A DNA stretch of 31,723 bases, taken from positions 1 to 31,723 of the IMG/VR virus record IMGVR_UViG_3300017785_000957. One strand, written 5' to 3'. This document shows positions 22,319-31,723 of this stretch, piece after piece. Under the pieces are notes generated by a model. It did no database searches. It was not told where the DNA came from and saw nothing but the letters and a program-made list of their open reading frames with translations. The translations under genes were made by a program, and so were the position numbers. The number at the start of each line of letters is the position of its first letter. The stretch's first letter is position 1. This DNA comes from a virus (Duplodnaviria > Caudoviricetes).

Positions 22319-22818
22319 TGCTTTGAGTTGTTTATGTACTGTGATGTGAATTCTTGTCGGTTGTACCCCCAGCGGCCTATGTGTTTTCGTTCGGGCTGGT
22401 TAAGCTGTAATAGGTTTAATAAATAATCCCGCTCTGCTACTAACTCGGCGTGACCCGTTTGCCAGATGTGGCAACTGCGGATGGCTTCGTCCCGTTCTCG
22501 TTCTAGTTTTTGGCATAAAAAAACAATTGGATTTTCATGTGTAATTTCATTGTCATTTATTTGTGTAATTCCAATTATACCCGCAATAATTTCTCCAGAA
22601 GGGCCTACATATATTTCCCAAGTGCGCGGCTCTGGTTTGATGCGGTAATGGTCTGGGGCGTTCGTCCATTTAAATTCAGAATTGCAAGCAATATCCTTCC
22701 ATTTGAAATCAAAATTGTAAGGGATAGTCTCCATTAGGAGACATTTAAATTGAATTGTCTTCCCATCTGCCAGTGCCTGCACAAGTGGCAGGTATAAGTG
22801 TGCGTTTTCTTTATTCAT
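22315..22818 (-). CDS. Hypothetical composite protein
   Basis: ALADGKTIQ...YRIKPEP N-terminal module plus LERERDEA C-terminal module; coupled on both sides. Confidence 0.7.
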   Translation of the reverse strand: MNKENAHLYLPLVQALADGKTIQFKCLLMETIPYNFDFKWKDIACNSEFKWTNAPDHYRIKPEPRTWEIYVGPSGEIIAGIIGITQINDNEITHENPIVFLCQKLERERDEAIRSCHIWQTGHAELVAERDYLLNLLQLNQPERKHIGRWGYNRQEFTSQYINNSKQ

Positions 22819-23981
22819 GTTAGTAGTTCGGCTAAAAGAGTTCTGAATGCTCGCTCTGCTGTTGCTGGGACAACTCCGTTTCCGAGTAGTCGCAGCTCGT
22901 CTGTGCGATTGTCACAGGTGACGCACAACTCGGCATAGTCCAGCCCACGGGTAGTCCCATCAACGTCTCTACCCAGCGTGGGTTGAGTTTCGCTGACAAA
23001 ACATTTGGAGTCACTTGGCTCTTGAGTGGCAGATGAAGATTTACACCCTTCTGTTTTTGATTTTCTGCTCTCTTCTTCCATTGTTCCCTCGTCTCTGGTT
23101 GGTTCCAGTCGAATGCGTTTGGAGTTGCCCACGACTTCTGCTCCTGTTTCACCGCTATAGGTAATGGTCGATGCAAATTGATTCCTTGTGCCTTTTTCCG
23201 TATTGCTCTCGCATCCCATGATTCTAGCGATTCGTCGATTTGACCGTCCATTGTCCGAGTTGTTGGCCACGACTCTTGGCGGCTCCCATCCGTGCTGGGG
23301 CTGGCTGGGGCGGGAAGGCCATGATTCGGCTGATTCCCGATCTTCCCAGCCTCTTGCACTGTCGGTATCGGCCAGTTCTTCTGCTGGTCCACTACCGCAT
23401 CGCTCAAGTAGCGTTGCCCCTTGCCAGTTTTGTCGTAGTAGGCTCCACGCTCGTTGCTCCCCATGTGCATCGTAGGCCATGATGAAGACTCGCTTGCGTT
23501 GGTGAGGTGCGCCGACTTCACGCGCTGAGAATATTCCCCACGACACTTTGTAACCCAGTTCTTCCAAGTCGCTGATAACGCTGGAGAGTCCCAGCGTGAT
23601 GTGTCCTTCGACGTTCTCAAAGAAGCAGATCTTGGGTCGCATAAGTCGAATTCCGTCTGCGATGAAAGGCCAAAGGTGTCTTGGGTCGTCTGATCCTGCT
23701 CGCTTCCCTGCTGCGCTAAATGGTTGACATGGGTAGCCGGAAGTAAGGATGACCACTCGGCCACGAAACTCTTCCCAAGGGAAGGTTTTAAGATCCGTCC
23801 AGATAGGAGCGCAGTCCATGAGTCCCGCTTCCATTTTTGCAACCAAGTTCGCGCAGGCGAATGCTTCGATCTCACAAAGAGCGACTGAGCGCAGATCTGG
23901 GATTGCTCTGCTAAGTCCAAGCTCAATGCCTCCGTATCCAGCGCACAAGCCAACGTGTGTAATTGTTTTGGAAGTATCCAC
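22815..23981 (-). CDS. DNA cytosine-C5 methyltransferase, catalytic (alpha-like) chain: motifs I-VIII and X
   Basis: LCAGYGG (I), GYPCQPFS (IV), FFENV (VI), PHQRKRVF (VIII), LRLLGNGVV (X). No motif IX in this frame. GTG start. Confidence 0.92.
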   Translation of the reverse strand: MDTSKTITHVGLCAGYGGIELGLSRAIPDLRSVALCEIEAFACANLVAKMEAGLMDCAPIWTDLKTFPWEEFRGRVVILTSGYPCQPFSAAGKRAGSDDPRHLWPFIADGIRLMRPKICFFENVEGHITLGLSSVISDLEELGYKVSWGIFSAREVGAPHQRKRVFIMAYDAHGEQRAWSLLRQNWQGATLLERCGSGPAEELADTDSARGWEDRESAESWPSRPSQPQHGWEPPRVVANNSDNGRSNRRIARIMGCESNTEKGTRNQFASTITYSGETGAEVVGNSKRIRLEPTRDEGTMEEESRKSKTEGCKSSSATQEPSDSKCFVSETQPTLGRDVDGTTRGLDYAELCVTCDNRTDELRLLGNGVVPATAERAFRTLLAELLT

Positions 23982-23983
23982 AT
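22832..23983 (-). CDS. Overlapping-frame methyltransferase partner (beta-like) chain carrying motif IX and WPT repeats
   Basis: 383 codons open across the whole MTase gene; ATG 2 nt before the MTase GTG; LNPRWVETLMGLPVGWT at 22937-22987; four W-P/A-T/I modules. Confidence 0.75.
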   Translation of the reverse strand: MWILPKQLHTLACALDTEALSLDLAEQSQICAQSLFVRSKHSPARTWLQKWKRDSWTALLSGRILKPSLGKSFVAEWSSLLPATHVNHLAQQGSEQDQTTQDTFGLSSQTEFDLCDPRSASLRTSKDTSRWDSPALSATWKNWVTKCRGEYSQRVKSAHLTNASESSSWPTMHMGSNERGAYYDKTGKGQRYLSDAVVDQQKNWPIPTVQEAGKIGNQPNHGLPAPASPSTDGSRQESWPTTRTMDGQIDESLESWDARAIRKKAQGINLHRPLPIAVKQEQKSWATPNAFDWNQPETREQWKKRAENQKQKGVNLHLPLKSQVTPNVLSAKLNPRWVETLMGLPVGWTMPSCASPVTIAQTSCDYSETELSQQQQSEHSELF

Positions 23984-29270: not shown

Positions 29271-29407
29271 TTTCCTTGGCGGTGAAATTCATCTATGGAT
29301 TTAATTATTCTTTGGCATTCTTCACGGCATTCCTTGCTTGTAGGATTGCGTCCTAGTTTAAGGCAAAGGCTCTCCCAAATTGTTGGCTTTCTTTCTTTTG
29401 TTTTCAT
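29267..29407 (-). CDS. Small hypothetical protein, 46 aa (not in ORF track)
   Basis: MKTKERKPTIWESLCLKLGRNPTSKECREECQRIIKSIDEFHRQGK; has the same CCATCAAA leader as its neighbours and fills the gap exactly. Confidence 0.7.
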   Translation of the reverse strand: MKTKERKPTIWESLCLKLGRNPTSKECREECQRIIKSIDEFHRQGK

Positions 29408-29419
29408 GTTTTTTGATGG

Positions 29420-29656
29420 TTAGCGTGTTTGATAATCGTAGAACTCAATCCGAATTACTGAAATGTCTGACGGCTTGGTCATTGGTATTGATTCATCAAA
29501 TCGGTTGTCATTGTAAATATTGGCGACCATTCTTGCCGCGCCTTTGAAGGTTGGTTTTTTCGCAGAGTAAGAGCGGATGAATGAATAGGTTGACTCATAC
29601 CCCCTGCCAGCTTTGCAATAATGGATTGCGGTGATTTTTGTGATTGTTCTTTTCAT
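29420..29656 (-). CDS. Hypothetical early protein
   Basis: 78 aa; leader AACCATCAAAGAAC-ATG. Confidence 0.65.
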   Translation of the reverse strand: MKRTITKITAIHYCKAGRGYESTYSFIRSYSAKKPTFKGAARMVANIYNDNRFDESIPMTKPSDISVIRIEFYDYQTR

Positions 29657-29684
29657 GTTCTTTGATGGTTAAGGTTTGCGCTCT

Positions 29685-29711
29685 AACTAGGCCACAAGCT
29701 AGGCCGTGAGA
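29685..29711. repeat. Intergenic repeat copy 1 (AACTAGGCCacAAGCTAGGCCGTGAGA)
   Basis: 25 of 27 nt identical to 30079-30105; contains CTAGGCC twice at 12-nt spacing. Confidence 0.85.
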
Positions 29712-29712
29712 T

Positions 29713-30045
29713 TCAGAAATCTTGAATGATGACCCCGCCTTGAAACTCAATTACATTGGTTCGGCATCCTAGCCATTGCAAGGCCTCGGCATCGCATTCC
29801 TGGCCATCGTCCGCAATGTCCTCACTAGGTTCCCAGCCGTAATTTTCAGCGGCTTCTTGAGCGGATTCGTATTCTGTGAATTCACAACGGATTGCCACAA
29901 TATCAAGTTCTAGCTCTTCTCCATTGGCCTTTTCAAACTCTTCAAAATATTCTGCCAAGGCCTCGGCTCCATTCCATGACCAGTTGGCGTTATGGTCAAA
30001 CATAAGGGCATGGGTGATTTCTTCGATAGTAAGTGTTTTTTTCAT
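29713..30045 (-). CDS. Acidic early protein (possible DNA mimic/antirestriction)
   Basis: 110 aa, very D/E-rich; GAEALAEYFEE...ELDIVAIRCEFTEY. Confidence 0.6.
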   Translation of the reverse strand: MKKTLTIEEITHALMFDHNANWSWNGAEALAEYFEEFEKANGEELELDIVAIRCEFTEYESAQEAAENYGWEPSEDIADDGQECDAEALQWLGCRTNVIEFQGGVIIQDF

Positions 30046-30078
30046 GTTCTTTTTTTCTTTGGTTTGGTTTGGTGCTTC

Positions 30079-30105
30079 AACTAGGCCGTAAGCTAGGCCG
30101 TGAGA
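30079..30105. repeat. Intergenic repeat copy 2 (AACTAGGCCgtAAGCTAGGCCGTGAGA)
   Basis: Direct repeat of 29685-29711. Confidence 0.85.
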
Positions 30106-30110
30106 ATTAT

Positions 30111-30353
30111 TTACAAGACTGGATGACTTGCAAGATTATTTTTCAGCATTTCTGAAATTTCCATGCATCCAAAGACTTGGTTTCCGCCGTATTGCTCGCA
30201 AGCATCGTCCACAATGGTTCCGATGTATTCCAAGTAAATTTTCGCGCCTGCAATATTTCCAGCCTTTAAAGCCTTGGAAGCTCTTTCAACTTCGCGCAAG
30301 ATTTCCGAAAGGACATTGCCACAAGTTGACATTTCAAAGTGATTTCTTTTCAT
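30111..30353 (-). CDS. Hypothetical early protein
   Basis: 80 aa; leader AACCATCAAAGAAA-ATG. Confidence 0.65.
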   Translation of the reverse strand: MKRNHFEMSTCGNVLSEILREVERASKALKAGNIAGAKIYLEYIGTIVDDACEQYGGNQVFGCMEISEMLKNNLASHPVL

Positions 30354-30378
30354 TTTCTTTGATGGTTTGATGTTTGAT

Positions 30379-30609
30379 TCAGCCTTGCTTCTTGGATACG
30401 CTTAGAAGGGACAAGAATCGCTCCCTAGTCGCCTTGGCTGAGCCTTGTGGATGTGCAACCCATAAAGAGCGGCCTGTCGATTTAACGAAGCGTGATGGTT
30501 TCCCACCGCCGCAGGAAACCCATTGGCCAGCTTGGAGTTTAATTTGACCAGAGATAACCGCGCTTTGAGTGGCAGCATTCCAGAGGTCTATTTTTGGTAG
30601 GTATTTCAT
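30379..30609 (-). CDS. Hypothetical early protein
   Basis: 76 aa with LQAGQWV...PSRFV motif; begins 15 nt after the hammerhead. Confidence 0.7.
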   Translation of the reverse strand: MKYLPKIDLWNAATQSAVISGQIKLQAGQWVSCGGGKPSRFVKSTGRSLWVAHPQGSAKATRERFLSLLSVSKKQG

Positions 30610-30624
30610 TGTCTTTGTTTGTTT

Positions 30625-30674
30625 AGTCTCATCAGTAAGGGCTTGACCCCTAGACGGCTTACGCCGTTTCGACT
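30625..30674 (-). ncRNA. Hammerhead ribozyme, type II
   Basis: Minus-strand RNA AGUC-GAAA-CGGC(GUAA)GCCG-UC^UAGGGG(UCAAG)CCCUUA-CUGAUGA-GACU: all core nucleotides present, stems I, II and III pair, GUC cleavage triplet. Confidence 0.92.
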
Positions 30675-30829
30675 TTTTCGCTTTTCGGGAAACTTACCCA
30701 CCGCTTGCAAACCTTGCCACAAGTAAGTGTCATTGTTCCATCTTCGTTTTCAGTATACCAGCCCCCATTTAAGACGAAGTGGAACCCAGTTGCAATTTCA
30801 ATCATTGGCAGATAGTAAGTATATTTCAT
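30659..30829 (-). CDS. First gene of the leftward early transcript, 56 aa hypothetical
   Basis: ATG 30829 with AACATCAAAGAAA leader, downstream of the promoter at 30882-30910; its last codons are part of the ribozyme. Confidence 0.6.
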   Translation of the reverse strand: MKYTYYLPMIEIATGFHFVLNGGWYTENEDGTMTLTCGKVCKRWVSFPKSEKVETA

Positions 30830-30881
30830 TTTCTTTGATGTTTTGGTTTGATTGTGAGCTTTGCTTCGCTCAACTGAAATC

Positions 30882-30910
30882 AAGGTAAATCATGGATTCA
30901 GCCTTGGCAA
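30882..30910 (-). promoter_or_regulatory. Sigma70-type early promoter
   Basis: Minus strand TTGCCA-N17-TACCTT with an AT-rich upstream element. Confidence 0.6.
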
Positions 30911-31723
30911 TAAAAATCTTAATTATTTTTCAAATCGCCTACAAGCCCCATAAACAAAGGGATTGAAAGCCTGGGGAATCCATTTCAAACCCCGATTTTT
31001 ATTAGCAAACCCCTAATCCCATTCCCTCGCGCAATCTTAAACCCACTATAATAGGGATTGTCGCTGGCATCTGTAGCAGGCCTCATGCTCTTTTGGGTTG
31101 TATTAGGCAAGGTCAGTAGCAGAGGCTTAAGTAAGCTTACTGGCAGGCCTCTAGCTCCCTTAAGGTGATTTTAACCATGGATGCTGATGGCTTGTCTATA
31201 GCTAATATTGGTAGTTGAGAGCTAATCCTAGTAAATGCGTTGATTATTTTTGATACCCCCCCCCTAAAATGTGGTGTTCAAGCGCACATCACGCTATTTC
31301 AGCCGTAAATGGGCCTAGAATCGCTTGGCATGGTTTATGGGGTAAGGCTAGGGCCGATCAATTCAAAGCTATTTTAATCTAACATCTATCTAACAAGTAA
31401 CTTGGCACGGAATCTGTACTGCGCTATTCTTGTTACATTGTCCAGGTCATGGCGTTCTGCAGAACAATGATCGCATGAACAAGTGGTCAGATGAACATGG
31501 CCTAGGGTTGAGCAGGTGATTCAAGCGCGTGATTTAAACGATTGTTTGAATTTGACGATTGGCGCAAGGATGTAATGTTACATTGTTACATTAATGCGTG
31601 TTCGGATAAGTAGTGTTCGGATGAACAGGGGGGAGGGGGTTGGCAGCGGCCTCTGATAAAAAATGCTGAGCGATTAACTTGCCGAACAAAAAATTTGTAA
31701 TTGCCAAAACATTATATTGACAA
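30911..31723. other. Non-coding control region (divergent promoters; possible origin or packaging/terminal region)
   Basis: No ORF of 60 aa or more; C9 tract, G6AG5 tract, short repeats, a palindrome, and TTGACA at 31717-31722. Confidence 0.5.

Follow-up and report, generated by a model that had tools for sequence, protein, structure and literature searches.

The minus strand of the window, by which we mean the whole 31,723-nt tailed-phage contig, carries at positions 30675–30625 an element that by sequence and structure is a complete type II hammerhead ribozyme, with self-cleavage predicted. We consider, with reasonable confidence, that it is a swappable spacer that likely cuts the early transcript between two small genes (genes 1 and 2), and that the presence of the gene 1 stop codon in one of its loops probably reflects a tolerated read-through rather than a switch. 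The spacer unit consists of a gene end, the ribozyme, an A-rich leader and the next start codon.

Architecture and detection of the ribozyme

The features of the locus are as follows.

30910–30882, minus strand: promoter-like TTGCCA-17-TACCTT, upstream of gene 1
30829–30659, minus strand: gene 1, 56 aa from an ATG, without a known family; the ribozyme includes its last codons and its stop
30675–30625, minus strand: type II hammerhead ribozyme, in a form with a 6-bp stem I and a 4-bp stem II and without a pseudoknot
30675, minus strand: A30675, the base adjoining stem II on its 5′ side; predicted to form a tertiary contact with U30646
30674–30671 with 30628–30625, minus strand: stem II, 4 bp; its 5′ strand is inside the last codons of gene 1
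30670–30667, minus strand: GAAA core
30667 with 30654 and 30666–30663 with 30658–30655, minus strand: stem III, the pair A30667–U30654 plus four G–C pairs
30662–30659, minus strand: loop III, a GUAA tetraloop that includes the gene 1 stop UAA (30661–30659)
30653/30652, minus strand: predicted cut, after C17 of GUC, placed by the hammerhead consensus
30652–30636, minus strand: stem I hairpin, 6 bp including one G–U, loop UCAAG; a seventh pair, U–G, is possible
30646, minus strand: U30646, first nucleotide of loop I, 7 nt past the cut; predicted tertiary partner of A30675
30635–30629, minus strand: CUGAUGA catalytic core
30624–30610, minus strand: A/C-rich leader of gene 2 without a Shine–Dalgarno motif, like the leaders of the neighbouring genes (repeat families D1 and D4)
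30609–30379, minus strand: gene 2, 76 aa; weak match to phrog_21585 (E = 0.0012), function not assigned

The CUGANGA core, GAAA and NUH that define the hammerhead class are arranged around a three-way junction, with stems I and III closed by loops and stem II open, which is the type II topology as defined in the available text of PMC3088659. The core, stems, GUC and coordinates given in the earlier note are all present on the minus strand, the gene 1 stop does lie in the GUAA loop of stem III, and the predicted cut holds its place 6 nt past that stop and 43 nt ahead of the gene 2 ATG (30609). A descriptor scan for types I–III on both strands returned this one match in 31.7 kb, and 300 dinucleotide shuffles gave 18 loose matches, none with stems as long as those of the element. 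The minimum-energy structure of the 50-mer consists of the three stems (z = −1.98). In folding runs the probability of stem II fell from 0.88 to 0.01–0.28 as more upstream coding sequence was included, so this 4-bp helix may misfold in context.

Rfam gave no matches on the whole window at E ≤ 1. The best-scoring hammerhead family on the element was RF00008, with 12.9 bits where the gathering score is 48.5. RF02276, which we take to be the Rfam family of pseudoknotted type II hammerheads, gave no match at E ≤ 10 on 201 nt and thus no score at its gathering threshold. The type II Infernal search that had been proposed as a check therefore did not detect the element. As Rfam offered no usable match, relatives were used to construct a model. 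Its alignment holds 59 of the 66 relatives of equal length. Left out were three that carry an additional base after the core, one that fails to form hammerhead pairing and three that are close relatives; omission of the last three makes the model independent of the core of the window's own lineage. An extra base between CUGANGA and stem II is also found in the type II variants L148, L155, L156, L195, L204, L235, L238, L249, L251, L260 and L266. On this model the window element scores 70.3 bits and the next match in the window 10.9; neither the model nor the descriptor scan found a further hammerhead there.

In the 59-relative alignment, 99.7% of 944 cells are paired, compared with 26–44% in slid controls, and two-sided changes occur at 12 of the 16 pairs, including all six of stem I. 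The relatives had been found by core words and spacing, and the search patterns fixed some stem letters, which constrains in part the figures for stems II and III but not those for stem I. Covariation in related phages, another check that had been suggested, thus supports the three helices. The stem I sequence differs among the window and the related loci L274 and L275 yet pairs in each, and such compensatory changes in close relatives are consistent with selection that acts on the structure of the RNA rather than on the identity of the DNA.

The earlier note had seen no tertiary partner for loop I. A loop I/3′-tail pseudoknot was tried and rejected, as the best complementarity is 3 bp and at least 4 bp was required. 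A likely partner is present in A30675. Among 110 relatives with a 17-nt stem–loop I that pass a pairing filter, 104 have U·A at the first position of loop I and the position immediately 5′ of stem II, three have A·U, two U·G and one U·C; the columns beside these positions vary freely. The window has U30646, 7 nt past the cut, and A30675, adjoining the 4-bp stem II. A tertiary contact U30646·A30675 is accordingly predicted as likely, with its geometry modelled on known contacts, and A30675 as the partner extends the element by one base beyond the range first given for it, to 30675. To judge from these letters, the worry over a missing tertiary contact was probably unfounded. The contact A in the cassettes often lies within or beside the upstream stop codon. 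In L031, L061 and L121 the contact is swapped to A·U, and a TAG triplet there begins with that U.

The usual type II pseudoknot is formed by loop I with the 3′ tail (PMC3088659, available text). In fast hammerheads a U 7 nt past the cut pairs in trans-Hoogsteen geometry with an A in loop II, according to the available parts of PMC9217987 and PMC6155905, and Fig. S5 of PMC3088659, as far as the source is available, gives a motif 'U Nm Y N - R Nm A' with the U..A contact scored for all three types. The predicted contact resembles the loop–loop U·A contact of types I and III in having its U 7 nt past the cut and its A ending a 4-bp stem II; it differs in that the A of the window is an unpaired base 5′ of an open stem II and does not belong to a loop II tetraloop.

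The early genes and exchange of the cassette

Sixteen proteins of the phage were scanned, and those recognised by PHROGs are a terminase large subunit, a major head protein, Erf, exonuclease VIII, a RuvC-like protein and a DnaC-like protein. The sequencing runs with the region are mostly freshwater metagenomes, and five of 16 hold half or more of its words. No relative of the capsid protein was found in bacterial genomes, and phage C75C1, with 56.5% capsid identity and no recorded host, gave no match to ribozyme model R1. A host among the Desulfobacteraceae was considered on the strength of the sole cassette-pattern contig from an assembled genome; that contig has a Shine–Dalgarno-type leader unlike those of the window and was rejected as evidence. 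Elsewhere on the minus strand, at 22815–23983, an ORF of 388 aa (GTG 23981) and one of 383 aa (ATG 23983) overlap almost fully in different frames, possibly as a frameshifted or dual-coded gene; by eye, the 388-aa ORF carries motifs that we take to be DNA cytosine methyltransferase-like.

From about 30900 downwards, a series of small genes occupies the minus strand, with A/C-rich leaders that lack a Shine–Dalgarno motif. The start of gene 1 is supported by L274, where an unrelated gene begins at the equivalent ATG. A homologue search for gene 1, limited to lengths of 30–98 aa, found one cluster of three near-identical members; the other match, over 10 residues, was at chance level and was dismissed. 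Gene 2 has 13 relatives in viral contigs, and among these a hammerhead lies directly upstream in L133 only, where the upstream stop is at −6 relative to GAAA; in L141 and L142 a hammerhead lies about 1.2–1.4 kb downstream. The promoter-like layout upstream of gene 1 is found in five of nine related loci (L274, L167, L276, L133 and L141), two of which carry the same sequence, and that pattern is absent from L134, L135, L139 and L279. A promoter and terminator scan of 29300–31723 stayed at chance level, with TTGCCA-17-TACCTT below the threshold of the scan. Because the box recurs in relatives, ORF 30829–30659 is likely the first gene of an early transcript, and the proposal that the ribozyme processes the early transcript after gene 1 gains support as to its placement.

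Genes around the ribozyme have been exchanged between phages. In L274/L167 the region upstream is about 88% identical to that of the window up to the gene 1 start codon; an unrelated 76-codon gene with its stop at −8 follows, homology resumes at the ribozyme edge (30677) with stems II–III shared, and beyond the ribozyme lies yet another gene. In L275 a hammerhead stands ahead of a protein resembling that of window ORF 30045. Logan DNA contigs from three of four runs carry this leader and this ribozyme separated by different letters (473 in two of the runs). Exchange of genes around the same leader and ribozyme indicates that the ribozyme and the genes are reshuffled independently of one another, an observation that Perreault also made on prophage clusters. 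The genes that flank the ribozyme are small and not constant between phages, as befits a gene separator; with one copy in the window, it does not form a cluster. L040–L044 include single phage contigs with about seven and eight tandem type II hammerheads, each between small genes. The leader and promoter segment at 30847–30932 is also common, in Logan contigs, to more abundant related phages with different first genes.

A second intergenic element occupies the same slot between stop and leader on the minus strand (30105–30038 and 29711–29644), ahead of ORFs 30045 and 29656. It is made up of the word GGCCTAG in two tandem copies, about 30 nt, followed by an A/C-rich leader, and is also present in L167/L274/L285 and twice in L326; its first eight letters equal the cut site and the start of stem I of the L133 hammerhead. 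In L275, L291, L297 and L321 a hammerhead precedes the proteins like that of ORF 30045. As a ribozyme candidate the second element was rejected, since shuffled sequences fold at least as well.

Position of the upstream stop codon

Stop positions were compared in three scans, with mechanical gene calls in the relatives (longest ATG frame, at least 35–40 codons); since the loci are related, the gene calls mechanical and the selection by pattern enriched in stop-bearing loops, all the counts given here are descriptive. The first scan, for which about 1300 viral stretches with the layout were estimated, returned at least 132 loci. Among 150 unique hammerheads including that of the window, the longest upstream ORF stops at −12 to −5 from GAAA in 113; five stop in the stem III region, four further downstream and 17 further upstream, and 11 are uncalled. 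By chance this band takes up 2.3% of 3850 random anchors. The second scan required the stem III shape of the window and a GUAA or GUGA loop, and gave 132 matches, 31 of which were rejected by the pairing filter (some being real variants with an extra core base), with 83 unique ones kept. Of these, the ORF ends in the loop in three and at −12 to −5 in 50, and nine are uncalled. The third scan, on the sub-lineage of the window, yielded 41 unique cassettes with the window and four other loci added: two have loop stops (the window and L276), 31 stop at −11 to −6 and seven further upstream, and the remaining one stops downstream but also has a stop at −9. Pooling all loci except L273, which over its 1650 nt has the same sequence as the window, gives 332 cassettes. 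In 242 the stop abuts the ribozyme (−15 to −3); in eight it is inside, ahead of the cut, and in two beyond the cut. In another 53 it is at least 16 nt upstream, and no ORF was called in 27. Where a cassette has a stop triplet before the cut, the ORF uses such a stop in seven of 143.

Unambiguous read-through ORFs, including that of the window, end before the cut in seven of eight cases, whereas from the sequence alone 154 of the 996 frames that enter would do so (15%; rough p = 1.5 × 10⁻⁵). ORFs that extend across the cut are most simply read as being selected against. Cleavage of an ORF ahead of its stop codon leaves a non-stop mRNA. Read-throughs may thus survive if they end before the cut, because those ending after it give a message without a stop codon, and loop III would be the last possible place for a stop before the cut because the stems are G–C-rich. 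This stop-before-cut rule is a side result of modest value. A literature search found no report of stop codons abutting or lying inside phage hammerheads (subscription papers and supplements may contain one), and the words 'stop codon' are absent from the main text of PMC3088659.

The earlier note had proposed that the stop was selected into the tetraloop as a coupling device, with terminating ribosomes unfolding stem III and so linking cleavage to translation of gene 1. We regard this as very unlikely, given how seldom an ORF ends inside the ribozyme (3/83, 2/41 and 8/332 in the second, third and pooled sets above). Relatives that keep the ribozyme and a GUAA or GUGA loop end their genes before the ribozyme, and both are ordinary GNRA-type loops in a family in which others (UUCG-type, GCAA and GCGA) are common. 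The ribozyme is identical in L161 and L162, where the upstream stops are at +9 and −18. Four distinct cassettes share the exact stems II–III and GUAA of the window, two with the stop in the loop (the window and L276) and two without (L274/L167 at −8 and L275 at −10). This local rate of two in four is above the family-wide rate and, in a very small sample, counts against an incidental reading, all the more as the proteins of the window and L276, although of the same lineage, are unrelated and both end at the loop; the near-identical gene 1 variant P0002 also keeps its C-terminus despite two other substitutions. Relatives almost always stop just before the motif, and on that ground the loop overlap is probably a tolerated accident.

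A ribosome terminating at an abutting stop would have a footprint that covers stem II, so any coupling should be family-wide and not specific to the loop. In such a scheme ribosome traffic would set the cleavage rate, by blocking stem II or by clearing RNA that mispairs with it, and the loop stop would be a variant. The clustering of stops in an 8-nt band against stem II (113/150) speaks for it, as does a folding model in which upstream coding sequence competes for the 3′ strand of stem II. Given that competition, ribosomes could prevent folding or, alternatively, remove the competitor, and the sign of any effect is not predictable; no usable support was found in a literature search on ribosome effects on hammerhead cleavage. 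The clustering can also be explained by tight gene packing and a conserved A at −5, which in the cassettes often comes from TAA, TAG or TGA, and the 53 distant stops and 27 cassettes without a called ORF count against it. We judge family-wide gating to be quite unlikely. The broader proposal that phage type II hammerheads are translation-gated cutters, with the gating carried in freshwater phages by a pseudoknot-free U·A subclass poorly covered by Rfam, seems to us unlikely. If gating were true, a ribosome would sit on stem II and the contact A, cleavage would report translation of the upstream gene, the stop would have to precede the cut, and the window locus would be an extreme, with its gene ending inside the ribozyme. 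Highly improbable, in our view, is that the cassette acts mainly as a conserved site of recombination or gene joining in the shuffling of genes, with slow or no cleavage by this copy. Homology with sister phages does set in at the leader and at the cassette edge (30677), the intervening genes differ, and stem II is marginal in long contexts; against this, the catalytic core is intact and the stems change by compensatory substitution among close relatives. The loci themselves offer a natural matched pair, with the same leader and ribozyme stems and either a loop stop (window, L276) or an earlier stop (L274, L275), suited to a direct comparison of the effect of translation on cleavage.

On the reading that we prefer, a spacer ribozyme with a tolerated read-through, transcription would start from the early promoter-like site upstream of gene 1 and the RNA would fold once CUGAUGA-GACU, which includes the 3′ strand of stem II, had been transcribed. 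The single U30646·A30675 contact would hold stems I and II together, replacing the usual pseudoknot, and the RNA would cut after C30653. The upstream product would be the gene 1 message with a 2′,3′-cyclic phosphate end 6 nt past the stop, and the downstream product would begin with a 5′-OH stem I hairpin 43 nt before gene 2; in the relatives the median distance from cut to ATG is 55 nt and the 10th percentile is 43. As two products, gene 1 and the downstream parts could decay and be translated separately. Gene 1 would have entered the slot without a stop in the usual place and would run a few codons on to the GUAA loop. A 5′-OH together with a terminal hairpin could slow decay of the downstream mRNA, as the earlier note had proposed. 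A literature search on 5′-OH stabilisation, which included the available text of PMC8750797, found no direct support.

Relation to known hammerheads

The intergenic hammerhead layout has been known since 2011, and the locus adds no new kind of element. What it brings, of modest value, is a large type II subclass that lacks the pseudoknot, has a covarying U·A contact and was missed by Rfam in this window. According to the available text of Perreault 2011 (PMC3088659), clustered hammerheads flank variable prophage genes and cleave in vitro and in E. coli. The window element is like the type II hammerheads described there in its topology, its consensus core and its position between small variable phage genes, for which processing of polycistronic RNA was proposed. 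It differs from them in having no pseudoknot of at least 4 bp, the form here being a 6-bp stem I and a 4-bp stem II with a predicted single U·A contact, and also in its lack of a match to the Rfam type II model, its single copy and the gene 1 stop inside the ribozyme. For self-cleaving ribozymes of phages in general, processing of polycistronic transcripts has been suggested and their purpose is described as still open in the available text of PMC6765202.

A further comparison is with HHphage of haloviruses HF1 and HF2, for which the available text of PMC3088659 gives a mapped 5′ end within 3 nt of the cut site. There, as in the window, a polycistronic message would have its 5′ end set by the cut of a hammerhead in an early region. 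The HHphage core is a variant one and its start codon is 13 nt away, whereas the window element has the consensus core and a predicted cut 43 nt upstream of the start codon.
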